Below are positions 10,896 to 47,700 of a DNA stretch of 64,000 nucleotides, in pieces (the stretch's first letter is position 1; each line of letters begins with the position of its first letter). Both the position numbers and the translations under genes were made by a program. Under the pieces are notes generated by a model that had not been told where the DNA came from, ran no database searches, and saw nothing but the letters and a program-made list of their open reading frames with translations. Source of the DNA: Pecten maximus (Eukaryota); NCBI RefSeq assembly GCF_902652985.1, contig NC_047023.1, forward strand, positions 11,222,001 through 11,286,000. Direction: 5' to 3'.

Positions 10896-11259
10896 AAACG
10901 CCATTGCAGTACAGTTGTGAACGCCATAAATTTTATAAAAAATTACATTGTTTTGTTAATGATAATAATACTTTGTGGAACTAGTCGTCATCAATAAACG
11001 TCAAGCGAATTATATTTAATTATACGAATACAACGACAGGTTTGCCTGTTCAGCAGTGTTTTATGTTAACAAGAAAGCTCTAACACAACCAGAGTGATCA
11101 TACAAAGGCAAACTATGCAGTTAAGGATGCGTCTGGAGAGCCATGTATATTGGAACATAGTTGTGATGCAGCTCTGAAATGCACACAAGGATACGGTGGC
11201 ATTACAGATTAGCATCGCATGTGTAATGCCGAACATTGCGCATATGGCAGTAAATTACT

Positions 11260-11640
11260 CCAGCGACAACCAACAACCACAACTACAACTAACATCTACG
11301 GCTACAACCAACCACAGCAGAGACAACCAAATATAACAGGCACAGCCAACCACCACAGCGACAATACCGGCTACAGAGGCTACAACCATTATATACAACC
11401 AACGACCACATCTACAGTCAACAACCCAAGACAACCAACAAGCTCAATTACATACAGCAACTAGGGTCACAACCAATAATCACAGTTACAACTAACAGCT
11501 GGAGTGACAACCAACAAATGCAACCACAAAAAGTAGCCAAAGCGACGGTCAGGAGCCACAACAAACATTCATATCTACAAACGAAAAAACCCCTATAACA
11601 GCCAACATCCATATTGATAATCAACAACCCCAGAGACAAG
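11260..11640. repeat. Degenerate A/C-rich minisatellite (~20-bp ACAACCAAC-based unit)
   Basis: Recurrent acaaccaac / acaactaac / acagccaac motifs with strong strand skew. Confidence 0.75.
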
Positions 11641-13379
11641 GTATACCTAAAAATGTAGCAGTAACCGAAAATGTTAGCGACAACTGCATAAGTATGCCAT
11701 TTCAGAATGTTATACTACGTAAACATGCCGAAGTGGCTCATCTGATGGCCGAGGTGAGTATGTAATCACCCGTTATTGCCACTCTCCAGGGTAACATTAT
11801 CAGTGGTACATTATCCTACTGAATTTCCAAAACTGGACAAGGAGACTTCATCGGATGACATATGAACTACGGGGATATCTCACCTTCATTTTGATGTCGC
11901 TTATTCAAAACCGAACGTACTGCTATCGGCAAAATGCATATTGACTATCGTGTACATGTATCGACAGGATATAGACTGACGTATTTAAATAAGTGATTAA
12001 CCTAATTAGTACTGACTTGATTAGTGATGTCAAGGGCCAAGTGAAAGTGAAAATGCAGCATGCATAGTCACCACAACATGTTCTATATACGTGTGGCAGC
12101 ATATGTGTTTATTTGAAACTATAAACTAGCGATATACATTATCTATCAGCTTGATACAGATACAGTGTGCCTGCCCAAAGAAAATGATAACGTTCAGTAT
12201 TTTTATTTTATTATTTATGTATCACATTTTATAGTTGTAGCAAGTAACCTTTGATGTTTAATTAAAATATATAGAGATTTTTGTATGATTAAGCTACCAA
12301 TACATCGCCATTCAGGTCAATGTCTGTTTCGATGGCCTGCCTTCAATGATAAATTATTGAATAACTTATTAGTTAAAACGCGGCGGATGTATCGGTCCGA
12401 CAGTTATATGACACAGTGTAATAGGTTTTGTATATGTACGTGTCAAAAGATTTAATCTATTTCTCAAGACTGGATAAAATCTATCAACCACCATCCAAAC
12501 AATTTAATATTTATTATTTTCTGCTAGCAAAAGTGTCAACGTTAATTATTTTGTTCATTTCCCTCGTTTATACGTCACCTTTTATTGTCTTTTCCACTTT
12601 TAAACTTTGATTAGTTAAATTGAACGAATATATTTAAAAGGTCCACATTCGTAAATGTACAATTGATATAGTTAAGTTGTTGAAGAAATATAGATTCACA
12701 CGCACATTCGATTAATTTTCATTTCCACATACTAGTAAATTACTGAGAAATTATGAAAAAAATTTAACTTTAAAAGTAAATTAATCAAAAGAATGGCGGT
12801 ATAGCTTTCAGGGTAATAAATCAATAGAAAGGGTATTTGCATGACAGGATAGTAATAGAACAGAGCAATGAAATGGTATTCGTACTTGTATGATTTAACC
12901 ACCACAATGTACCATACACTGTTAACATACAATTGCCTTTACAATGCCATAGCTGGTACCTTTAAGGGGCTTTGAAGGAGAATTGCAAGTAGGATGTAAG
13001 AATTTTACGAGCTGCCCCACAATGATAGTTTTTTTTCTTCGGAGTATTACGTCTAGCCTTTAGTTGAACGTTCGTCACGTGAGGAATTTCGGTTCAATGT
13101 GACCTTGTAATCGGATTTTGTAAAAAGAACTTTTTTTTTTTAAAATCTTTAGGTAAGGGTAGAGAATCAAAGTGAATCAGCATTTCAGTTTGAATCAAAC
13201 TTGCTATGTATAATCTTTATGGAACCCATTTTATGTGTTAACTTCCAATAGTTTGGTGTCAATGTTTGGTTTTGGAATCTATGAACTATACAATCAGAAT
13301 GTGTCTTTATCTAATATGTCAACATAAGTAATAATTGAATAATCGACATGAGATTCCTGTTATTATAACTAAACAAAAA

Positions 13380-13472: not shown

Positions 13473-14784
13473 ACAGTGCCAACATTTTCTAGTTAATACA
13501 TTTAATGCTATTGTAAGGGATAATATATTGAAAGACTCGAGTTTTAGCTATTGGTCGGTTTTAAAAAGATAAGCGCAAATACGTATACCATAACAGGTAG
13601 AAAAACGTCACATCGAAACTGCGGTAAGTGGGATAATAATTAAGCTGGTAGGTAAAAAAGGTTTTGTCTTATCTATATTTAAAGTAATTTTAAGTTTAAA
13701 CTCAATTTTAATCAAACTAAAGTACCAAGCAAGGACGCAGTAATATGACCAGCATACTGTCACACCTACCACTATGGAGCAGACCGTCTCGAACCATCGA
13801 TTGTCAAACTGTGTCGACTTTAAACGTTATATACTCGGTACGATAAGGGCACAAGTGAGTGATACTTTCACTGCTAAATAAAATGTAATAAGAAATACCC
13901 CCGATGACATCCCATCTACCATGCCCCTCATGTCAAATAATTCATAGATTCTTAGATTGCAACTTCTTAGATAATGATTTGAGCCTGTCTTTAGAGAGGA
14001 GAACAGTTTGGTTTAGTTTTTTGTCCCTTCCCCTTCTTTTTTGTAAGCAATGATTCGAATTTCTGACTATTAAACTGCGGACGTGCCGTCAATCCAGTAA
14101 CGTTGTTTTTACATTGACATTCTAGACAGCAACCCTATAAAGAGAGTAGCCGTCAACAATTGATCGCAAATGCTGTCTCTTAATATATGATTATTGTTTT
14201 GCCGGGCAGACGTCCGGTCTTGTGTGATCGCCTGTGTTGGAAGTGTTAAGAGGTGACTGTTAACTATGGAAACATAATTATAATCAATTGGCTTGTATAC
14301 AAGGGACCATGACGTGATGTGACTGACCCATACAATACAATTAGAACTATTTGTTCACGCAAATTGGAGACATGCCGCAACGTTTATTTCCATTCCAATA
14401 CGGTCTTCGCCATTAGCGCCTCTCAATTTGACTACTGGAAAAGCTTTCTACCGAAGTAGATTATACCACTAGAAAATAGTCGCCCTGGCTAATAGCAAGT
14501 TGCCGGTGTTATGTCCAGTTTGACGTGGCTTACATATTTGAAATAACTTTTCTAAAAGCTGCACTCAAATAATTCTATAAGGAAGATAAATGGTGTGAAA
14601 ACTATGAGAGCAAATTGGCATGACGATACTAACAATATAAAGGCAGGATCATGTACGTCAAATTTTCTGCGCAATACTAGAGTATGAGTACAATATGGCT
14701 GATGATGCATGATTGCGGATGTCCTGTCTCCATGATAGGCATGTTACTGTTATACCTGTAATAGTAAATCACGCTATATTGTGA

Positions 14785-15215
14785 AATAGAGGATATATAA
14801 CAGTGTCTTCAGTAATACCAAATATATTTCACGAGTGGGGCTAATATTTTGATATTTTTCACGAGTGCGCAGCACGAGTGAAAAAATTCTAAATATTAGC
14901 CACACGAGTGAAATATATTTGGTATTTACTAAAGACACTGTTAGATATTATGTTTATTACATTTTTTATCAACGAAAAACATTCCCCGTGTGCTAACTAG
15001 GCCTACAGCGAAACTTTGCATACACAAAAAGTAGTTCCCCCTGTCCAGGTAATGACATATATGTCGGGCTTTCTGATTGGTCAATTATTTTGGTATTTTC
15101 TAATCATTAATTTGATTGGTCATATCAGTAAAAGTGATATTTTTCACTAGTGAAAATTATCACTTTTTTTAGAAAGAATGATTTTTGATATTTCACTGGT
15201 AAAAATGTAATAAAT
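14785..15215. mobile_element. Non-autonomous palindromic DNA element (possibly Crypton-like)
   Basis: 146-nt hairpin 14798-14943 with four CACGAGTG motifs; second palindrome 15130-15167 centred on CACTAGTG; 14-bp inverted repeat 14953-14966 / 15201-15214; two TGATTGGTCA motifs; non-coding. The superfamily is a recollected resemblance, not verified. Confidence 0.65.
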
Positions 15216-16582
15216 ACGTTTATATAAATAGGGACGTTCTAAGGGTGTCCTTAACAAACAATTACCAGATAAATAATGTTAACTATGAGAATGACATACT
15301 GATTTGAGTCAGAATTGTATATGTCTACATTCCAGGAGTATGCAAACCAGTTTAGTTTCCAGTAAGATGTCTTGTTTATTTGTACCGATCCGGAAGTAGA
15401 CCACATGTACATTTACATTACCTTAGATGTTATTGAATTTATGTTCTGATAATCAAAAGGGATAGTTATTATCAATATATATTTAATAATACATAATGCA
15501 TTGTTTACAAACATGTCTGAATTATTATGTAGCTATATAGATACAATTGTATGTATATATCATTTCAGAAGCAGACACTATCTTGGTATAAAATATTAAG
15601 TTTCGCTCGAAAACAGTCCGTAAATAATTATTTCTGCTACATCTCGATGACATCTATAGCTTCACTACGTTACAGCAGCGACGGTTTTTGCACAATTTGA
15701 AGATGAAATCTCGACAACTTACTCAATTCTTATTCGTATTTTTCACGTTCAATTCGACAACGTGACAGCGGAAAACGTTAACGTTTATGCGTTTGGATTA
15801 TTGATCATGTTAGATTCCGCTATAGAACGAAGTAATTTCAACAAATGGATTTGACGCTGAAACCTATAAAACTATTCTTTGAAAAATCAAATAACCATAT
15901 TAATGCCCATAGGAAATTGGTATGAGTTCCGATCATGTCTACAGACGAAAATCAGAAATATTTGGCCTTTTATAACGTTGATAATGTTTAGCACGTAATG
16001 TTTCAAGCTGTACACGATAATTGTAAATTAACTTTTGAGGCTATGACATAACCATGGCTATATAATGGATAAATGAAAAATGGAATGAAGACTCTTTTCC
16101 AATGCCATATCAATATGCTGTTATTACCTTTATTTATTGGAACATATCTACTTTAAAATCAAGAACTGAAGAGACATCAGCTCAACAAGCAAGGCCACAA
16201 CGATTTCAATCAAATGCTAAATGTCAAGAATTCAATACTTCCGTCACCTGCACGTTGTTTTATAAGTATGTAAAGGCTGTCAGGATATCATTAAGATGAA
16301 ATCAGCTTGCAAAGTCATTTTTTTTTTTTTTTTAGCAAAACCATTTCAAATTTGGTTTCGTTTGTTCGGGTTTTTAACCCTTTAATAGCAGCATAAACCA
16401 GTATACATATTAGAATGAGTTACCGTAAGGAGGATATTTCAAGAAAGGTAAATATGTTTTCTCAGAGTTATAAATGAATATCACAATGCATTGTAACATA
16501 ATATGCATTAGGCGCTAACACGTGACATTTCTCCTTTAAATAATTGATTTTGTTAGTAATATGCAAATATACATTAGCATAC

Positions 16583-16734: not shown

Positions 16735-19709
16735 CTGAAATACAATATATATCAGTATTAGAAGCTCTCTAAGGAGTGACAGACTCAGATTCCAAGAACG
16801 GTCAAATTAAAGCAATTGATGACAGACCTATCGGTGCCATTGTCTGATTCTTGATAACATCATGCGACCTACTGTACAAACCGCCATGCTTGCATGCTAC
16901 CGGGTCCTAAATATCATCAGGTTAGCTAGAGGGAGGGAGACCGTCTTGGAAATGTTTCCAAGAAATTCAACATCAAATTGTGGCAACGGATAGGAAATAT
17001 AGGCGATGGATATGCCGCGAGAGAGTCCATGTACACTATGCATGGACTGTATGTTCCCCCAAGTTGTTGAAGAGCGTAAGAATTGCTAGATCTACGACAT
17101 CCTGATTTGATGATAGGCAGTCTGCCAGCTGCCAGATGGAGCTTTTATTGGATCAGGAAGGTTGTAAGTCAGACAGAGAGTACGTCTCAGCTGTAACTGA
17201 CGAGGTGTCAACCAGGCAGCTTTTGTAATGGGTTCATTTTCTGCGATTGACTTATCAAAGTCATATTAGAGTTGAGAGCATTCATGTTATCCTGAAGGTT
17301 AAAATAAGCACATGGCCACATGTACCCATCGGTATACCATTCAGAACTGAGACTTGCTAACACAACCATTAAGGATGCTGTCTATAGAGATATATCACAG
17401 ACACCAAGGGTAAAAAAAGACGAGTTAGGTTTTGTTATAATATTTATGAAATCGGCGTCACAAATATTCGTCATAAATATTTTAGTAACACATTCAGTAC
17501 AAAATGATCTCAATTCACTAAAGGTCAAATACAGACCAGAATAAAACTTTGAAAAATACATTACGGTTGTTTTCCCCCGAATATTACCCGCATTGGTGCC
17601 GTGATGTCATAGATAAGGTTATACCCATTTTGTTCCATATCCAGTTGCAGAACGGCGTTTTTCAATGAAGATCTCCTCGATATCAACTCGCTATACAAAA
17701 CCTGATCAGAAATGACAATTTGCAAATAATCAAACGCTATGATGAATTACTAGAGATCGAGATGATTCGGTACAGTAAGCAAATCATCCTGTACAATAGT
17801 CTTTTGAAATGTCCTCCACTATTTAGCAGGTGTATCGTACGAACTATGCGATCAATGCTTAATTCAGAGAGAGCAAAACAAGTGTGGTATTGTTAAAAAT
17901 ACAAGTATTCTCTGGGGAACTTTAGGTCATTCCGGCCAATTATATTCTACTTTCTGGCGACAACAGTCTTCATGCACAATACTGAATGACTCCAAAGACA
18001 TAAAACACACTTATGTAAATTTCTTATCTATTTTAAAAGACGGCAGACATTAAGGAAATTAATAGAAAATTACTCTCTCGATGACTTTCAAAGACGTCAT
18101 ATTTACATTTGAAGTTATATCACTCTGTTGATTAATTAATCATGAAGATGATTTGGGGTTGTCAAAATAGCTGCTTAATTACCCTTCATTTGATAACATA
18201 ATCAAGTGTTGGTAAATGTTATACCCTGCGCTCTGCCTTCTCAGAAATGCATTGTGCAGAAAAATAAAATAAAATAACAAAACTGAAATGATAAAACGCC
18301 GTACACTGTTGGGTGTCACCTTCAAACTGCAAATACTTCAATTTATTCCGTATAGATGAAAAATTAAAATAGTAATTTCAATTCAGTATTGCAATCGTCC
18401 TCATTAATTATGCTTTCTTAGTTTAAATATACTGTGAAAAACATTGCATATTGTTCGGTTGGCCTGAAGACATAATATGTTTATAGACTTGTTAAGACAC
18501 ACTTATTGAACATTCCCCTTCCTTGAAAAAACACCATACATATGCTGGTCCCCTATACAGCAACAATTCTTAAATTTGAATGTGTGTGTTTACTAGAAAA
18601 AGTAAACACCGCTCAACTACCAACAGTTCACGGCACCATTTGGTTTGACATTCGAAAAACACACTTGTCAGAAATGTCCCCATGACTACGCTGAAGAATT
18701 AATATGTCGATCCTATCTTTATGTTTCTTATTGACTTTCGCTAGTTGAGTAGGGTCGAGGCATGTGAACAGACATATCTATTGGTCGAACAAAGGCTGAC
18801 GTGTCATATGCCTGACAGGAAAATCAAGGTCTGTGTAGACCCCGAGGGATCCAATTGACTTTTTACGCTGTCTTTAATCATTACTTGTAGGAACAAGTTC
18901 CCCTGTATAGCTCCTTTCTGTTGCATCTTTCACCGGGTATACGTGTATAGATGCACCACCGCTGCGAGTCTGATGAAGTCAGAATCGATGGACTACACTA
19001 AGTGAAAATAAATCTTGATAAACAACCGAGCTTCGCATTGTTAATGCCAGATAGCCATTTTTACATTCAGACATCATCGACTTTCTGTTCCCAGCCGGAA
19101 ACCTTGCCGGGAACCACTTACAAACACAACATGACTCCCTGTTGCTAAGGGTTTGCTTGATAAATTGGTCATCTGTCCAATTCTATCCAATTAGGTCAGC
19201 AACGCTGTTTTAGGAAGCAAAGTGTGGAGGCGAAAATAGTCTCAACGGGAAATTTCTTGGGTAATTGAAATTCTTAATTTATTAGTCTGATCCGTGAGAT
19301 TGAATTCAAATATTTGATCCCGAAATTCAATTACCTGAGTTTTGTAGAAAAATGATTCGAAATCCCCCGTTGCGATGCATTATTGGGGATCTAAGGAGCA
19401 ATTTTTCTTGGAAGTTACGTGTATCAAGAATAAGTTAAGAACGCTACATGAACTTAAAACTAGGATGTTCCTTTAAAAGACATTATAAATACAAACACGT
19501 AGTATTATGCATCTTAGTAAGGTTTCTGTACCTACTCTTGTTACTAATTCTAACGTACTTTTCCTCACACGAATGCAAAGACTAATTATATATACAGACA
19601 CTGTTATCTGACATTTTCACCCTGTTTTGTTTGGTTTCTTACTCACTGCCACGGTTATTTCTACGTTTTTAGTATAATGACTGAAACTGTAAATATATAT
19701 GTGCAAGCT

Positions 19710-20195
19710 TCATGAAAAGATACATCAAGGCCATATGAAAATGTATACCTAGGCTATATGAACAGATACAGATATAAAAAGGCTATACAATCAGATGTAT
19801 CAAGGTCATATGAAGATATGTCAAGGTCATATGAACAGATATGTCAAGGTCATATGAACAGATATGTCAAGGTCATATGAACAGATATATCAATGTCATA
19901 TGAACAGATATGTCAACGTCATATGAACAGATATGTCAACGTCATATAAACAGATATATCAAGGCCACATGAACAGATATATCAAGGCTATATGACAGAT
20001 ATATCAAGGATATATGAAAAGATATATCAAGGCTATGTGGATGGATATGTCAAGGTTATATGAACAGATTAATAAAGGTTATATGATCAGATATGGCCAT
20101 ATGAACTTATATATCTGGACTATATGCACTTATATATCTAGGCTATATAAATGAATATGTCCAGGCATTATGAACACATATATCGAGGCTATAAT
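19710..20195. repeat. 23-bp minisatellite (TCAAGGTCATATGAACAGATATG), ~20 copies
   Basis: 23-nt period in the core (19821, 19844, 19867); decays towards both edges. Confidence 0.95.
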
Positions 20196-21749
20196 GAAGA
20201 ACTGTTTAAAGTATATGTGTGTATAATATTGTCAAATATGTTCCAACTAATATCCCATGCAACGCTTTTTGTGCAATTCATTTGGAGTTTCTTACGTAGT
20301 ATAAGTATAAGAACCGTATCCTTCGCATACACAACTGTGTATTTCATGTAATAATGTTACACATACCGGTAATAGGTTCGTAAATTAACGATGTCTTAAG
20401 TGTGATTCCCTTTTCCATACTTCCAGTAATCTTCAATTCCATTTTTGTGTTTGCCCTAATTAAAATCAAACATCACGAAGAGAAATAAATTTAAACAACT
20501 ACCACAATGACACACATGTGATTAGTATGATGACAGGTCTAGTTTTATCTATAAACAACATCGATAAGGTTGTCTATCACAATGTGATCAAATCCTTCAC
20601 AGCATTTAGAAAAAAGGTATCCCTTCAAACACAAATAAAAATGCATGTTTTATGACACTATGCATGTAAAGCATACCAACCGTTCTGACCAACCAGAAGA
20701 TCACGTCATCCTGGTCTGTCGATACAAAATGTGGTATATTACATAATGAATTTTAGATCGAATCGAACGAACATGAGATACAAACGCCAAGCAGCTTCGC
20801 GACCGAGCATCTACAGTATTAACAGGGGGTTTACTGGTAACGCCTACCTACATATGTAATTAGCAGATATACAAGGTAATTTTACGTAATCGTGCATTAG
20901 AAGTTCTTTTTAGTAGAGAAAAACACACGTTTTTCGTCAATACAATTTTCCATTACAATTTTCTAACTTTATCAGTTCTATCAAATGATTCGGTATTTTA
21001 ATCCTGATATTGACAATGGCTTGACTTATGATAGAAAATCCTTTGATAACTAACACTGGTCCAAAAATAGTGTTTGTGTTGAAGATATGTTAAAATAAAT
21101 TGATATGTAGGCGTCGTTCGGCATGGCAAATAACCCATATGGGATTTGCAAAGTTACCAAAGAGGAGTAACTCCAATCACACAATTGCACTAGAGTGCAT
21201 GTCAAAACAAGACATATACTTATGAATACATACATTTGCTGTTGTTTATCCCGCCTGTACCGGGAAATTTCACAAACCGTATATCATCCTGCCACTTTTG
21301 TGAATTGTTCCAGAAAAAATTTCGTTTAGGATACCCTTGCAACCGCCTAGCTAAGGTGATTAATCATGGCGGAATAGAAGAGCATGCTCCCCAGGACAGG
21401 GAAATGTTAAGAGTATATAGAACAGAACATAAGGCACGAATAGATCTTGATAATTTTTTTTCTTGATTTTGATAAATGAATGAAATGCATAATCATATTG
21501 GAACAAGCTTCTTTATGTGGAAAAATAATGACAATGGAATAAACTAACATTTAATAATCTAGCAGTTTGCTAGGTAGTTAATATGTTAAAATATTTTACA
21601 AACCAAGCGAACTGGCATTAAGTAATCTCCTGAATTACAGATTATCGAGAAATTTCAAGAAGGAAGTCGTAATAAAAACACTCAGAAGTTATCTGTATTA
21701 ATGTCTTAAAATTGTTACCTGCATTGGATTTCTGGTTGATTGATCTTTG

Positions 21750-21898: not shown

Positions 21899-22055
21899 AA
21901 GGATTGTACCTCATTTTGACTTGCGTATACGGTAGTATGCCCGCAATTGACAACGAACATTTCCTATGGTTGGCCCGTTAGCGCTCCATAGGATATGCCC
22001 GTTGCCAACTGCGGGCATACTACCGTATACGCAGTCAAAATGAGGTACAACCCTT
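21899..22055. mobile_element. MITE / long hairpin (~70-bp inverted arms, 16-nt loop)
   Basis: aaggattgtacctcattttgac...cctatgg pairs with ccatagg...gtcaaaatgaggtacaaccctt; 6 substitutions and 1 indel. The right end CCC|TTA suggests a Harbinger/Tourist type, but the target-site duplication is not intact. Confidence 0.75.
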
Positions 22056-23707
22056 ATATTTACATTTACATCAAACATATTGTTTAAATACAGTACGAAG
22101 AAAGGAAAATTCAAGGTGTGTTGCGACATTGGTAACTACGTTTTTTGTTTTTAATTAATTGATATATTCACAACCATAATTTCCGTCTCAGATTAACTAT
22201 GATGTCAAGCACAGCGTGTATTGACACAGATTAAGTAGTGACGTAGTCAAAAGTTCTCTAGTAACTTTGTGCATAGATCATCGGGCAACAGGAGAAAATG
22301 CTAAAATTGCACTGATTAGTCCTTTCAAAATGGCAGCATCAAGTTGACGTTCTGGTATCGTCACATATAGATGACGTCATAATTATGTTACCGATTCCCG
22401 CGCTTATTACTCCGATAGGCCTTTTTTTCACTGCGTATACGCTAATTTATTCGCAGTCAGAGTTCACTAAGCTGTTCATATATGTATATACGCTAGTCTC
22501 TGCCAGAAATCTATGTATTACATTTAGCACTTGCCAAGACGTGGAAGGCATGGTAGGAATAAATAAAGTGCATCATAGCAAACAACCTGTTGATACAACC
22601 GTTAAGTCAATATTCCCTTTTCTACACCATATTGCTACTAAAGCGACCAGTGATAAAATGATATCAAGTGGCACGCCGGAACGTCGGTATTTCAAATGTG
22701 TCAACGGTCATCGGTGAACAGTTTATCAACATGGTCATGATACGCCGTTACTGTTTATACAGAGTTAGCTGATGGTTGGTCGATGTTTGATTTGGCGAGA
22801 ATTAATGACCGCTAGTTATCTAAGCAGGACACATATAACCATTCTATTTGAATGACGGCATTTCATCATTCGCGTGAAAATCAATAGATAGTTGTGTTTC
22901 AAACGGATGTTGCACTATGCTAATGGCAGAAGTGCGGTTTTATTATTATCATTTTTTTTATTATTCTAAAAACGGAATACAAAAAAGCATTACAAATGTT
23001 CCGTTTCATTGCAAGTGGAATTAAAAAAGCCTTGAATGTAGATGCAGTCAAAATGAAAGATGAGCCTTCCAACATATAATACACTTTGAAAGGGAGACAT
23101 TTGCTGATTTAGCACTAATTTCCCGTGAGGTTTGATTTGGTGTTATGTCTTGCACTCGTGACAGCTTTTGCCATATAAAGATAATGTTGACTTTACCAGT
23201 AGAAATCCTTTCAATATATTACATTTTTGAAATGTTATTCCTTCCTTTATATCATTCATATAGAAACAGTTGCAACACTCCGTTTAACATTGAAAGACTA
23301 TTCTTCTGACATCGGTCAGTCTCAGTCACATCAACCTTAGAACACAAAGAAAAGGTGTACGTCCTGGTCAATACTACACGTTGTCAATGAATGATTGGGC
23401 TTGGTAGCATGACATCGTACCCTTTAACAATACAATGACAAAGTGTTGCCAGTTCTTACTGGCGTCATGAATGATTTGCCGAATACTTTATTTCGCAGAT
23501 TTACTCTCCTGACATTCTTGTCAATACATGAACTAGCGAATGCCGATCTTGTAATGAAATTACTGTTAACTCGCGAATGAAGAGCTATTAGATTCATGGA
23601 TTCTGCATCGGTAGTCGATAACTTGGTCGCCGTCAAAAGGTGTTATTTTCGTACAAATAATCGCGAAGGATTAAAATTTTCGATTGACTCTGCTCGCGCA
23701 TTAACAT

Positions 23708-31900: not shown

Positions 31901-33374
31901 TCTCATGTAAATCGAGGTTTCATCTCTACCATGCTCCCAATGTTATAACTAAAGACATCATAGATATAAGCAATGTTTTTTTAATTGAGCGTAATACAGT
32001 AGAACCAAGGTGAAGTAAACTGCAGCGTTGGTTTGCTTCTTCCTTTTAAGACTCGTCCGTGATGCCCAGATCTTAAAGTGTCGATCATAGGAGATGGCTT
32101 AAAACTCGATAAAGCTTGTAAGAAATTTCAAAATCTTGATGGTGCCATCGTATTAGGAATATGAGTTTTCTTCAAATGAAATCGTGATGATCTTTGTTTG
32201 ATTGTGTAAAATGAGACACAAGCAGATATACCAATACACCAGGAGAAGACAGTGGAAAATGAAATCCGACAATGTATAGTAATGTTGCAGAACGACAGCT
32301 TTAGTGAACACATGCTGACGGCAATTCAACTTGTACTCGCCGTCTCCAACGAAGTGCTGAGAACCCATAGTCATACTGTATACGCGTACAAAGATATCAT
32401 TTATAACAGACATCTACATCTTAAAACAAAATTAACAGGAAATGATAATAATTAAACTCTGTATTAAGACCTCGTAAAGACTGATGACAAAGTACCCCGC
32501 GATTAACTTGGCTAATTTGTAATAAACAGTGTTAGAATGTAGGTCAGTTCCGTTGTTTTTATTGAGACAGGGACGGAAGCGGTTCGGTGCAAATTAACAG
32601 TTGTACGTCCGTCCACCGCACTTGATCGTCATTGATGTGGGGCCTGTTCTTGCTCATATGATGTGAATTGACATTGCGTGAAAGTTAGACAAAACACAGC
32701 CCGATATCTTCAAGTGTATCAAATTGCTACGTTAACACTGCACTTTAGCTTGATGCAGTAATCCATAGTATGATTCATGGTGATCGAGGAGGCATACGAA
32801 TATATTACAGACTCAAACAGCGTGGTTCTTACATGAGCATTGCGGGGTTTCGTGTGGCATAATGTCCGTGCTCCAAAACGATAGGGTTTAATTCTTTATC
32901 TACACCGGACATCACGTGTCATGTTTCCCGTGTAAGCCGTGTTAGGTGTTGTATAGACAGAGATATACATGTTCGATATTGCAATAAAGATAACGATACT
33001 TAACGCCACGTGGTACATTAAATTGAAACAACAACGTACGGTGTACGTGATATGTGTTGACCAATCCTGCCGGCTAAGAGTAATTGTCTTTTGTCATAGA
33101 TATCTAATCATTGTGCGTGCGTTGCGTAGTTCCAAGACTCTTAAGATTACCTTATAGCAGTAAACGAAAAACAAATCAAGTAGATGTATGTACCAAAGAG
33201 GATTCAATGCCTTCATCGGACACCAATGTTGATAAATCCAGAGCTATGGTCATCGATGAATTCCTAGAGAGATTTTTTGTATGAGTTGAGTTGCATAATG
33301 CAGTTTACTATTCCTAACATGGCGTTCCCTCTTCTCTTTATTATCTGAAGTTAACTTTTTTTATTCATTATAAA

Positions 33375-34198
33375 GCATTTACTCTATCGTATTTATCATC
33401 CGGCGTTCTATCTATCTCATTCATTATCCAGTGCATTCACTCTATCTCATTTATTATCCGGCGTTCTATCTATCTTATTTATTATCCGGTGTTCTATCTA
33501 TCTTATTTATTATCCGGCGTTCTATCTATCTCATTCATTATCCGGTGTTCTAACTATCTTATTTATTATCCGGTGTTCTATCTATCTTATTTATTATCCG
33601 GCGTTCTATCTATCTTACTTATTATCCGGCGTTCTATCTATCTTATTTATTATTCGGCGTTCACTCTATCTCATGTATTATCCGACGTTCTATCTATCTT
33701 ATTTATTATTCGGCGTTCTATCTATCTCATTCACTATCCGGTGTTCTATCTATCTTATTTATTATCCGGCGTTCACTATATCTTATTTATTATCCGGCGT
33801 TCTATCTATCTTATTTATTATTCGGCGTTCACCCTATCTCATTTATTATCCGACGTTCTATCTATCTTATTTATTATTCGGCGTTCTATCTATCTGATTT
33901 ATTATCCGGTGTTCTATTTATCCCATTCATTATCCGGCGTTCTATCTATCTTATTTATTATCCGGTGTTCTATCTATCTGATTTATTATCTGGCGTTCTA
34001 TCTATCTTATTTATTATCCGTCATTCATTCTATCTCATTCATTATCCGGTGTTCTATCTATCTGATTTATTTTCCGGTGTTCTATCTATCCTATTTATTT
34101 TCCGGCGTTCTATTTATCTTATTTATTATCCGGTGTTCTATCTATCCTATTTATTTTCCGGCAGTCACTCTATTTAATTCCTTATCCGGTGTTCACTA
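33375..34198. repeat. 28-bp minisatellite (TATTATCCGGCGTTCTATCTATCTTATT), ~29 copies
   Basis: CCGG recurs every 28 nt (33486, 33514, ...); explains ORFs 33489..34199, 33673..33897 and 33965..34177. Confidence 0.97.
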
Positions 34199-34615
34199 AA
34201 TTTTGGTAATTTTTCGTAGTTCACTCTTTGTATGATCAAATTCATATTGGAAGGTGCTCTTCTTTTTGTTGTTGTTGTTGTTTTGTTTTTCTATCCTGAT
34301 TTTGATTTGACAATTGTATTATCCGTTGACTTGTGTTCATACCCCCAATATATGCCGGTATAAACAATTAGCAATGCTCTTGTCATGATTGCATAAATGT
34401 TTTGGATGCTACTAAGAAATCATCAAAATGAATTCAAAGAATATTGACACAGTATAGAAAACGATTCTTAATATGTTACAAGAAGAATTGTTTTCGGAAT
34501 GTAATTATACAGGTATCATGACTTTTCTTGATAATTTCAATTAGAAAACATGTTTTGCTGCACTAACCCACTGATTGATAGCATGAATCATTGAAGAATT
34601 ACGGAATTGCCTTTG

Positions 34616-42660: not shown

Positions 42661-44279
42661 ACTTTATAAATTGGAAGTAAGAATGGTTGTTACAAACGTG
42701 GAATACGACTCTTTTTGAAAATACTTGCTATCTGTTTAATATGCCCGCGACAAACCGAAGTAATTAGGGCCAACACGCATTATCATTGTAACTGACTGGA
42801 TGATTTGCCTGTCATCTGAGTTGGTAGTAATGCGTTCAATTCCGTTACTTCATCATAATATGCACATTGACATCGCGTTTTGACCGTTGCTATGATGATG
42901 TAAAGTAACAATAGTAGTAAAAGAATAGAATGCCGAATTACACATTTTAAAGAGGTGTAAGCTGACAGAGTGATCACGTTGGAGGTATTCTGTTCCTTCT
43001 TTTCGCTGACAAGAGTTCCTGGTGGTTTAATGGTCAGTCCGTGGTTCTCGAGTGGAGTAAGTTACAAAGCTTGCAATCCTGATTTACAAAATGTCAATGC
43101 CAGAGGTCACTATGCGTTTTTTTTTGTTTTTTTTGTTTTTCCTTTATTTTTTAGATATTCTTTTATCTAGTTTCATCGATTTTTCATTCTTCGCGCTGTC
43201 ATTCTTTTCAATACACGAATCAAATCCCGCATGATTTTGCATAATAACAATACAGAATTTTATCTCTCACACAACTAAAGTGTATTTCATGGTGCTGTCA
43301 ATATCAAAACAAAATGTCTGAACTTTCTCTTTTTTTAGATCTGTACTTATCGAATATGACCAATCAGTGCTACAGGTAATGTCATACTTCAAAATTTCTA
43401 TCGAAATTTGCAAGACTCCGTTATAGCGGTCGTGAACACGATGACGACCCAGCGCGTTCATTACATATGGGCTGTATTAAAATAGTGCAAAAGGCACGTT
43501 AACCATAACACATAAGTACGTTTTGTAGCTGAATGGAAATAATTGAGTACCGCATGTTGAGTGTCAAAGAAGGGTTGTCTCCGCACTGCTCGTCAGGTCT
43601 ATCCGGCTCTGACTGGAACATGGGGATTCCTATCCACTTGTCTGGTTTTGATCGCAATGTCGAAATCCCAGGAGAGTAGATGCGTTCCCTGTAGTCTGTT
43701 TACGAGCTTGGTATTCCTACGCGACTACGATTGCTAGATAAACTTGTGCATCATATTCGGCTATATCAAATTATTATTGATTCTTCAAATCACGCGTCTA
43801 AAATGCAAGCATATCTGCGTGAAATCGCTAAGACAGTATTTTTTGTTTAAATTCTCATTAAACCGCCATCTACCATCATGGGAATGAACGTTCTGGACGA
43901 TCAAACGAAATTGTTCCCATACTGGAAATCTTTTGAGGATAATGAAGTGGAATTGGGTTGCTGCAATTGTATACTACTGTCAAATCGTATTCAGTGAGAT
44001 TATTTCAAAACTTTTAAACGCTATTAATCAACTCGTAAACTGTCGAAAATTAAGGTTATTTACTCCATGATTCTCACAACATATGGAATTGAAGCTGAAG
44101 TAGGTTTATCGAAGTATTCCAACATGGAATACTGAGGCACATTGATCTCGAATGAGAAGTCGTTTTGTGTAAAGTGAGTCCTGCATCGTGTGATTGTTTG
44201 CATGGAGTTAAATATATTTCCTTTTGCCATTGCATATATACAGTGAATGGGGGCTGGTGGCTAGTGAGACAAAAATTCA

Positions 44280-44680
44280 CGATCTAGGGAGACACAAAGA
44301 CGGTCTATGGTGACACCTGGTCTAGGCAGACACACAAGGTCTATAGTGACACCTGGTCTAGGGAGACACACAAGGTCTAGGAATACATATACAATGTCTA
44401 GGAACACACACACGGCCAAGGAACACATAAGCAGGATCTAGGAACACACACACACACACACATGGTCTTGGAACACACAAACATGGTCGAGGAACACATA
44501 CACATGGTCTAGGGAGACGCACACACAGTCTAGGGAGACATGTAGTTTTGTGGGACATGCGCAGTTTAGGGAGACACGCGGTCTACGGAGACCCACACAC
44601 AGTCTAGAGAAACATGCGGTCTAGTTGGACACACACGCAGTCTAGGTACACATATACAACGATCTAGGGACACACATAGT
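44280..44680. repeat. Degenerate ~18-22-bp minisatellite (GGTCTAGGGAGACACACA)
   Basis: Repeated gtctagg(g/a)a(g)acac units with variable CA tracts; a ~36-bp dimer is repeated at the left end. Confidence 0.9.
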
Positions 44681-47139
44681 CAATGAAAGCACACACACTG
44701 AACAACGGAACGTTAAATAATAGATGTCATGATGTTCTAAATGTGACAGCTGATTGATTTCCCGTTCTTTCAAATATACCTTTACCAATTGTAAAACAGT
44801 TAATTTTATTCCTTTTTGTGAGTGTTTTGTTTCGAAGTGATAAGAGCGAGGCGAGAATCAACATCGTTTGGATATAAAGACAAAATGCGAGTGTAAATAC
44901 ATAAAGTATGATGTCCATGGCACTGTATCACACAATCTTAGTTGGTGACGAAACTGTGTCATAAACGATACTGTCGGGAGTAAACTACCACAGCTCGATA
45001 ATGACTGAAATTATCAAAAAATGTCAGCCGTTCATGACCGAATAACATAAGTAGCCTAATATCAGCTTGCCTAAACACAAAAGTAAAGCATTGCTGCACA
45101 ACTAAATGAACATGAGGAAATACCTGGCAAAGATTGGTGTCGGCACGGATTTAGTGCTGACCTAATAAATATGTTCTGACATACATGCATCGCCACCTTT
45201 ATATGCATCATTAAATTATAAAGTATTTGTTAACATAAACCAACTTATTTCGCCACAAATCAATTATCCATTCTATCCGTGCATTTTACCAGTTTTTGCT
45301 ATCGTTTCGGTTCGAGATTGATTTTTACTTGTGTAAGAGACCAATGATGAGGACTCCACAAAGGTATAGAAGTTTGATTTCGTGTTCTCAATGTGTGGAC
45401 GAAAAGCAACCATAATATATTCGCTGCACCCAATAAAACATTCGTTCATTTTATATATATATATATATTTCCTTTCTTTTTATTTCTATCATAAGTGTCT
45501 GTCATAACGACTTACTATATTCATCATTTTGCCTTTTTTAAAGCTTTATAGTGAGGACGCCACAACTGGGTCATAACTGAATTCTGTAGGGATTTTCACG
45601 GTCTGCATTGAACCCGATTTCAGCAGATGACTTTTTATATCGACTTTCGCTAAAATGCGTATATCTCTTTCTAATGATACAACCGTAGCTTTCTGCGTTC
45701 TATTTAAATGTAATTCTCAAAACTTGGAAGAGTAAGGTATTTATCTTTGTATATTTGAATAAGTAGAAATAAACTATTGTGTACATACGCCAGTCAATGC
45801 ACGTACATTTATACGTGTATATATATAAGATATACGCAATGATGCGGTTGCTAAGGGGCAGATATCGAAACTGATAAAATCTTCTCGTGGACGGCAATGG
45901 GTATAGAAGCAATTTTTGTGTTTTTTCAATTGAGTGGAAAAATACTGCTTGTGCCAAAATATTTAAAAAGAAAAGCTGTTTTCTATACTAAACTATCCGT
46001 GTATCCATTGCTATAAATCTACGAGACGTCACTATCGTCCTCCGCTGGTATTAAGCAGATACAATTTTAGAGCAGAGGCCTTCCAAGGGAGCCATTATGG
46101 TGAAGATAGGTCGGGACTGACGCGAGCTATGTATAATAAGTGCTTAGTGTAATGGATAAAACCGAAAACTGGAAAGTCTTCTGATTCCAATCACACATAC
46201 ATGTACAATGTATCTCCGGTACGGGAAGATATGTTGGTAGAGTATGTGACATATACATGTTATAATGTTTATTTATTTATTTATCCCTTATTTTCGTTTT
46301 TTTCTTTTTCTTTTTTTTTTCGAAAATAATCAAACGGATATGTACTTGTACATCGTAGATAAGGGATCAAGGTGATCAAACAATGATTTTGTTTAGCATG
46401 AAATCGTGTTTTAAACAAGTAAAAATAGATAAGATGATATAAATAGAAGATTATATTCATACCAAAACTCATAACCACGTGATGATATTAAGTTTTGCAT
46501 TACCATTGTTTAATTTTACGCGAGTCACGTGATTAGATCATTTACCTATGCGACAGAACAGGCAGAATTTGTGGGAAAAAATATTGAAACCTTTTTGTTC
46601 AAATATTTCATATTTACTTAGTATGATAATAATGTATTTTGATTAAGGTTCTTAAGTTCTTTTCTCATAGAATGAGATTCTCTTAGAGGGTAACGCGTGC
46701 AGCTAATATAAACGCACTTGCTTAATGTATACACTTGTCTCGCTTTACAGTAGCAAAATTGTGTCGGAAAAACAACTTGTTTCTCTATAATTGAATATTT
46801 TCTATCAATGGAACGCCACTTGTACACCGCTGGAGGTCTGAGAACGTGTAATTAAGAAAACTGCAGTCTAAATTGGCAAAAATATAGCCCGATTGACTAG
46901 AACTATTAAATGCACAGATATCTGTATGAAGGAGGAGAAAATGGAGTAGCATTTTGTGGCAATTAATCAAACTATTCCGTGATAAAAACAAGATGTCGGA
47001 AATATAGTTTTTGCGGGACGGACTGTTGTAGAAAATCTCGACGTTAATTGCTCTTATAAGAAGTGCGTAAAGCGTTTAACAAAACTACACCGTTACATTT
47101 AATAGTTTGTTTAGAAGAATACTGAACAAAAAAATCGTG

Positions 47140-47700
47140 TTGTCTTATATAATGTGTGGATAGGGACTAAACAACACAGCCGTTATATTTTATATGATGT
47201 GTTGATAGAGAATAAACAACACAGTCGTTATATATTATATAATGTGTGGATAGAGAATAAACAACACAGCCGTAATATCTTATAAAATGTGTGGATAGAG
47301 ACTAAACAACACAGCCGTAATATCTTGTATAATGTGTTGATAGAGACTAAACAACACAGCCGTAATATCTTGTATAATGTGTTGATATAGAGTAAATAAC
47401 ACAGCCGTAGAATGTGTTGATAGAGACTAAACAACACGGTCATTATGTCTTATATAATGTGTGGATAGAGAATAAACAACACAACCGTAATATCTTGTAT
47501 AATGTGTTGATAGAGACTAAACAACACAACCGTAATATCTTATCTAATTTGTGGTTAGAGACTTAACAACAAAGCCGTAATATCTTATATAATATGTTGA
47601 TAGAGACTAAACAACACACCGTGATATCTTATCTAATTTGTGGTTAGAGACTAAACAACACAGCCTTTATAGTTTATATAATGTGAGGATACAGACTAAT
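47140..47700. repeat. 45-bp minisatellite (TATAATGTGTKGATAGAGACTAAACAACACAGCCGTAATATCTTR), ~12 copies
   Basis: 45-nt period (atagag at 47295 and 47340); one unit has an internal deletion near 47410. Confidence 0.95.

Follow-up and report, generated by a model that had tools for sequence, protein, structure and literature searches.

Judged by its sequence, the long hairpin in the window (the whole stretch of Pecten maximus DNA that was analysed, 64,000 nucleotides) is the left end of a 428-bp non-autonomous element of CryptonA type, which spans positions 14786-15213. By analogy with the CTX phage and integrons, this element end probably acts as a folded single-strand site at which one strand exchange takes place. 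The element and its borders comprise the following features (positions in the window).

14781..14785, + strand: host sequence forming the left target half, with R-A-K-A-W as the consensus of the family
14786..15213, + strand: non-autonomous CryptonA-type element, an internal-deletion derivative of a 3.19-kb tyrosine-recombinase element
14786..14792, + strand: left terminus ATAGAGG, the element-side spacer
14793..14868, + strand: left hairpin arm, GA cores at 14833-34 and 14863-64
14869..14871, + strand: GCA triloop, closed by C14868-G14872
14872..14948, + strand: right hairpin arm, GA cores at 14876-77 and 14906-07
14949..14953, + strand: 5-nt counterpart to the left spacer, which is 2 nt longer (7 nt); C>A at 14950 in the window copy
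14954..14966, + strand: foot tract, whose reverse complement is exactly the far end; the two change together across families
15015..15023, no strand: deletion joint; relative to the parent, about 2.76 kb is missing here, the recombinase gene included; BLAST to the parent locus L149 splits at query 235-243
15075..15119, - strand: two boxes, presumably of CCAAT type, facing the recombinase direction and lying upstream of the recombinase gene in the parent
15134..15163, no strand: palindrome of perfect type centred on CAC-TA-GTG, resembling in duplex form the CAC-GA-GTG blocks of the fold
15194-15201: weaker CAC-TG copy of this block
15201..15213, + strand: far (right) terminus, ending in AATAA and pairing with 14954-14966 on the + strand
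15214..15224, + strand: host spacer and right target half, with T at 15221

The initial annotation had read the loop and the interruptions of the stem correctly: G14869-C14870-A14871 is closed by C14868-G14872, the GA dinucleotides lie base for base where they had been placed, and the four CACGAGTG motifs on the + strand start at 14830, 14860, 14873 and 14903. The window contains 5 matches to CACGAGTG compared to 0.8 expected (0/100 shuffles). The hairpin is likewise real, while its length, given as a stem of about 70 bp, had been understated, the arms extending over 14793-14868 and 14872-14948. The + strand folds with -54.6 kcal/mol (z -16.5), both GA/GA steps forming 2x2 loops, and the - strand is nearly as stable (-51.4 kcal/mol, z -15.6). 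Nearest-neighbour energies of the two strands differ by just 0-4 kcal/mol in most cases, so that a strand preference rests on published chemistry and not on the folds. CGAG blocks form sheared pairs in DNA as determined by NMR (PMC10085684), and the mirror-placed C-GA-G blocks of the element, which would be expected to form such pairs, meet only in the fold. DNA hairpins of the GCGNAGC type are described as very stable and their tested RNA counterparts as less so, and GNA mini-hairpins are reported at phage single-strand origins and N4 promoters (PMC13037366). Outside the hairpin we observed CAC-NN-GTG look-alikes near the far end; the palindrome with a TA centre and the CAC-TG copy are likely accessory binding sites. 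The boxes at 15075..15119, which we take to be CCAAT-type motifs, are likely a remnant of the recombinase promoter.

The ends at 14786 and 15213 were set by the 30 best copies together with copies chosen via an inner motif. Copies align from 14786 to about 15214, and the loose contig ends, which cluster at 14786 and 15214-16, agree with the element ends in three DNA runs. A genome search returned 2182 first-look candidates, and the 40 that were scored are all near-full copies with 92-100% identity. The inner pattern of the element has 896 exact genomic matches (control 0), corresponding to about 900 copies. Using a pattern that is blind to core and loop (839 sites in total), we found GA-GCA-GA in 39 and GA/GA in 42 of the first 50 listed sites, with perfect pairing in 2/50. 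This is in line with a junction survey of copies, in which 45/54 inner hairpins carry GA/GA. GA/GA is the state of the family, and the concern that the mismatches might be private to the window copy is not borne out. The survey took 60 loci and obtained 52 rows; nine loci were dropped, four with a flipped hairpin interior, three truncated or rearranged and two normal.

Altered hairpins in single copies (L060, L144, L073, L194, L266, L269, L277, L302; L012, L117, L156, L295) are whole or partial inversions, or have one arm corrected to perfect pairing, and their break points differ. The flipped hairpins do not look like a spreading subfamily: L144 is 99.6% identical to the unflipped L104 and 98.2% to the flipped L060, and from these two cases the flips look like separate events. 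In the left flank of L030, 40 bp of the element's left end are duplicated in tandem, and contigs contain back-jumps from 14824-27 to 14786-93 that resemble it. No empty allele of the window locus is among the joints listed in four runs.

A DNA search with the right part of the element found short copies only, and the parent emerged from DUF3504 loci. Profile searches had given 150 scored matches to DUF3504 and 100 to phage integrase, and 60 DUF3504 loci were fetched with wider flanks. The parent, located in L149, is 3.19 kb long, and the halves of the window element match its ends at 91% and 93%; a parent with the same ends is present at four unlinked loci. These alignments show that the window element derives from the recombinase-encoding parent by internal deletion. 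Exon 1 of the parent matches DUF3504 with 54 bits (cut-off 29.7), and DUF3504 is matched by 12/12 sister proteins tested. The tyrosine recombinase (YR) gene is antisense to the GA strand and contains two GT-AG introns that are retained in dispersed copies. Its split reading frame, which had been considered as an insertion, reflects these two introns. The parent YR is found with both introns in L149, L303 and L304, and many sisters (L112, L114 and L121 were compared) are single open frames. L056, another candidate for the parent, was discounted: a window-family copy has inserted there at the far end of a different YR element.

The parent YR keeps the R, K, R, H, Y motifs with the first catalytic His replaced by Tyr. 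The full R-H-R-Y tetrad is found in L112, L121 and L113, family A has Gln at that His, and a related YR keeps R, K, HxxR, GH and Y. A structural model of the 536-aa L112 YR (pLDDT 84) has QRICH1 and Cre as its first fold matches, and IntI is absent among the fold matches listed. Residues 7-47 of this model (L112:5268-6875, - strand) form a confident small beta-barrel (pLDDT >90) without a Pfam match, and L119 and L120 contain a stretch similar to it. YR homologues occur in bivalves, a gastropod, octopus, cnidarians and a hemichordate, under the labels KIAA1958-like and ZMYM-like, and the top protein hit, with 100% identity, carries the label Pecten maximus; in viral contigs we found neither a YR relative nor the hairpin motif. 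On the features tested the element would be classed as a Crypton, of CryptonA type. The initial annotation had suggested a search for autonomous partners and, as one candidate, a Crypton tyrosine recombinase supplied in trans. The partner is indeed a DUF3504 tyrosine recombinase, and the parent shares both ends with the window element.

We then compared the hairpins of sister families. The 140 YR loci comprise 60 from this genome and 80 from metagenome contigs; 111 have at least 500 nt downstream, and 48 of these gave a hairpin while it is missing in 63/111. With strands assigned by YR direction, the 2x2 loops of the 48 hairpins are GA/GA in 73, TC/TC in 9 and other in 33 of 115 cases, counts that are not independent, as loci share ancestry, and in which some hairpins near YR genes belong to other inserted elements. 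Restricted to one hairpin per cluster, the best in each, the 20 clusters give 27 GA/GA, 3 TC/TC and 10 other steps of 40. GA/GA steps are found in this genome and in the metagenome contigs. A first step sits 2-6 bp from the loop and the next about 22-33 bp beyond it, and the distance of exactly 30 bp between steps, as read from the window copy, is not fixed. The loops on the GA strand are mostly GNA, TT, TTT, TCT or TCC and mostly closed by C-G; a GCA loop of the GNA type is the family state here and does not extend to the sister families with TT, TTT, TCT or TCC loops. Invariant GA cores within changing stems, which had been put forward as a test of the fold, are what is seen across families. 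As a control, 13 other hairpins were found in 343 kb, 9 of them without GA/GA and 4 representing one cluster of sister design.

Some hairpins depart from this pattern. L133/L165, L127, L151 and L159 have near-perfect stems of 80-100 bp with few or no GA steps, and in L133/L165 the foot tract is retained despite the near-perfect stem. In the metagenome loci L192, L197, L239, L250, L193 and L223, two to three GA/GA steps are stacked two base pairs apart below a GCA or GTA loop. Another repeat family contributes a second long hairpin to the window (21905-22045; a related arm is at 22420-22457), which has no GA/GA and also occurs twice in L078. The window further contains tandem arrays at 33293-34320 (28 bp), 47017-47699 (45 bp), 19672-20196 (23 bp), 11246-11643 (19 bp) and 44275-44669 (about 19-21 bp).

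Just past the right arm, the 13-nt tract 14954-14966 complements the far end 15201-15213 exactly, and the stem continues beyond the arms into this foot tract. Where one copy sits at the far end of another, folding of the joint gives a single stem, about 90 pairs long, from which GG (14791-92) bulges, as seen in folds of the natural head-to-tail junctions L176, L181 and L173. The same GG is predicted to bulge when the joined ends of the window element fold. Nine different foot/far-end sequence pairs exist among the families. A foot/far-end complement of at least 14 nt is present in 19/38 loci compared to 5% of 200 cross-family pairs, where the loci are 40 hand-picked ones of the 48 with hairpins, 38 of them with room, and where 3/19 are not foot tracts and 16 are true. 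In about ten families inspected by eye the top strand exceeds its partner by 2 nt, L125 and L133/L165 being outside this count. When the ends are joined, a single strand forms in these models an unbroken stem from which 2 nt bulge out. The natural junctions and the foot/far-end covariation indicate that a half site-spacer-half site with unpaired bases is foldable from one strand. The foot complement of the far end appears to be new, as we found no such description.

We propose that the hairpin probably serves to fold a single DNA strand of the element so that it becomes the site on which the parent YR recombines. A single-stranded circle or a looped-out strand would join the far end to the left end, and the joint would pair with the foot tract, producing a site that resembles a duplex but has 2 nt bulged in its spacer. 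At this site the YR would exchange one strand pair with a duplex target, and replication or repair would finish the insertion, like for CTX attP(+) and integron attC. Sheared GA steps and small loops would stiffen the stem on the GA strand only and so fix the strand that is used; the GA interruptions may also spare the genome a perfect palindrome of 150-200 bp. For CryptonA in general, we lean towards a single-stranded DNA circle with the joined ends as a self-folded attachment site and the GA steps as evolutionarily conserved strand selector; the domesticated DUF3504 genes ZMYM, QRICH1, KCTD1 and KIAA1958 would then derive from a structure-reading recombinase. We saw no circular or single-stranded form of the element. 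Depths of contigs that span the junction (3-180, single-copy 18-64) are explained by genomic tandem copies, and contigs cannot show circles.

The same sequence signals would arise if a duplex circle extruded its joint palindrome as a cruciform and the arm of the GA strand were recombined, with no free single strand at any stage. The similar computed energies of the two strands are compatible with this, as are the clean excision of CryptonF in Chlamydomonas (PMC9977147), which fits duplex recombination in that group, and the circles described for Starships (10.64898/2026.09.21.753150). However, TC/TC on the other strand should hinder extrusion, and the joint of a duplex circle would already constitute a site, making the foot copy redundant unless it is the substrate. 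We consider a cruciform unlikely.

The target consists of R-A-K-A, 8 nt and T-A-T-T, i.e. a weak inverted pair flanking a spacer in an A/T site, and T occupies the first right-half position in 44/51 copies. Short homology between element end and target is seen in position counts, as in Cryptons. Units of tandem arrays in L063, L064, L071 and L080 provide empty sites and demonstrate precise insertion without target duplication; L075 is a fifth, more complex tandem-array case. Comparison with empty sites had been suggested at the outset, and no target site duplication (TSD) was found. Apparent TSDs of 22-25 bp are really insertions within tandem arrays, 43/48 rows lying inside the shuffled-pair null. 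The element spacer ATAGAGG is present in 48/48 left junctions and in 0/51 right junctions. Without exception the break falls one base inside the spacer, at its left edge, the right end retains element letters and the left host motif is variable. Wherever the far end is followed by ATAGAGG, a whole element of the window family or a sister family begins there with its left end (12/12 genomic cases), and spacer-only products are found at 0/12 such sites genome-wide. Two strand exchanges at unlike spacers should yield both outcomes. The products are those of a single strand exchange, which is not specific to folded sites: in the VGJ phage, a duplex site likewise gives up one pair of strands for exchange (PMC3442271), so that the polarity of the junctions is no proof of a folded substrate.

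In L171-L182, L056 and L009, elements land head to tail at each other's far ends, also across families. Such mutual landings build mixed arrays, and L009 contains four sister hairpins beside a window-family copy.

The model in print (PMC13565253) assumes a double-stranded circle and calls the Crypton mechanism undemonstrated. Here the joint of the circle would be the site, the palindrome an accessory array and the GA steps mere interruptions. One-sided junctions could result from biased repair or from one-strand exchange on a duplex site, for which VGJ is a precedent; the target has a Cre-like symmetry, and near the far end there are CAC-NN-GTG blocks in the form of ordinary palindromes. This model leaves unexplained, however, why the interruption is nearly always GA facing GA at mirror positions in unrelated stems and on the strand antisense to the YR, and why the foot tract covaries with the far end at a constant 2-nt excess. 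We judge it a little less likely still than extrusion from a duplex.

The hairpin could also be a priming or copy-out signal that marks a strand for release or second-strand synthesis, with a duplex circle being integrated. The GNA mini-hairpins at phage origins and N4 promoters are consistent with such a role, and in bacteria, SE elements use tyrosine recombinases to make a circle from one of their strands (PMC9345347). But priming needs no foot tract that rebuilds an exact half site-spacer-half site at the joint, and the parent contains no primase, Rep or helicase frame, which makes this explanation improbable. Even less can be said for a DIRS-like retroelement without reverse transcriptase (RT), in which the foot tract would close a cDNA made in trans. 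The layout does resemble the DIRS ICR, where the complement of both extremities lies near the sense 3' end, and DIRS cDNA is antisense and single-stranded (PMC7192593). Against it stand the two introns kept in dispersed parent copies and the lack of RT or ITR in the parent, and DUF3504 has no match to DIRS or Ngaro YRs in the available part of PMC3212892; a DIRS origin is very improbable. A MITE of a DDE transposase or an HUH element (IS200/IS605, Helitron or Replitron type) can practically be dismissed: foot tract and far end do resemble 13-bp inverted repeats, and hairpin ends, lack of a TSD and an oriented target recall HUH elements, but the element runs 168 nt beyond the apparent repeat, there are neither terminal inverted repeats (TIRs) at both termini nor a TSD at four empty sites, and the parent has no HUH nuclease frame, its coding frames being the YR exons, besides one frame of at least 90 aa antisense to intron 2. 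The DDE partner with ordinary TIRs and TSD, named in the initial annotation as evidence against its proposal, is accordingly not what we found.

Folding of one strand into a recombination site is the reading we prefer. Counting against it are the small energy difference between the strands, the one-strand exchange of VGJ on a duplex site, the YR loci that lack a hairpin and the families that lack GA steps, the flipped or corrected copies, the Tyr in place of the first catalytic His in the parent and the clean excision of CryptonF. If this reading is correct, animal genomes would share with bacterial integrons and CTX a recombination of folded single strands, selection would act in distant hosts on non-Watson-Crick G-A pairs of DNA, and eukaryotes would possess a one-protein, loosely targeted integrase for single-stranded DNA. 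For Crypton transposition, the end design provides substrates and mutations to choose between a single- and a double-stranded route. It also offers a rule for locating the ends of Cryptons, whose definition has been described as difficult (PMC3212892).

We found no prior description of this end design in the literature, a search that lay outside Repbase, Dfam (which may already note hairpins) and the Kojima 2020 review. 'Hairpin' and 'palindrom' are absent from the main text of PMC5753468 and PMC13465315; termini may also be treated in Additional file 1 of PMC3212892.

Among known systems, CryptonA (Kojima & Jurka 2011, PMC3212892; Glomhopper, PMC13465315) is similar in having a single DUF3504/YR gene, an animal host, no TSD, many deletion derivatives with both ends and a short A/T target homology. 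Animal Cryptons are described as lacking terminal repeats in the available part of PMC3212892. In contrast, the elements studied here have a terminal GA/GA hairpin, an internal complement of the far end, a 2-nt bulge and one-sided junctions. CTX attP(+) with XerC/XerD (PMC3442271) resembles them in that inverted site copies fold on one strand with unpaired overlap bases, a single strand exchange takes place and insertions are tandem and head to tail. While CTX uses two host recombinases, a rolling-circle Rep and the fixed dif site, the present elements would employ one self-encoded YR and loose targets in a eukaryote. The integron attC site recognised by IntI (PMC2727003) is also an imperfect palindrome with variable stems in which unpaired features mark the strand. 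It is confined to one end of the cassette and marked by single extrahelical bases, whereas here both ends are joined and the marks are tandem GA steps; IntI, attI and a cassette array are lacking, and the protein is of DUF3504 type. The DIRS ICR (PMC7192593) shares an internal region complementary to both extremities, a YR and antisense single-stranded DNA, but our parent has no RT, Gag or ITR, keeps its introns and encodes a YR of another family. SE elements of Vibrio (PMC9345347) likewise combine a tyrosine recombinase with a strand-biased reaction, and differ in having four genes, a specific attB and, as far as the available part of that source describes them, no long hairpin. New here are the direct parent, the retained introns, the empty sites and the junction counts.
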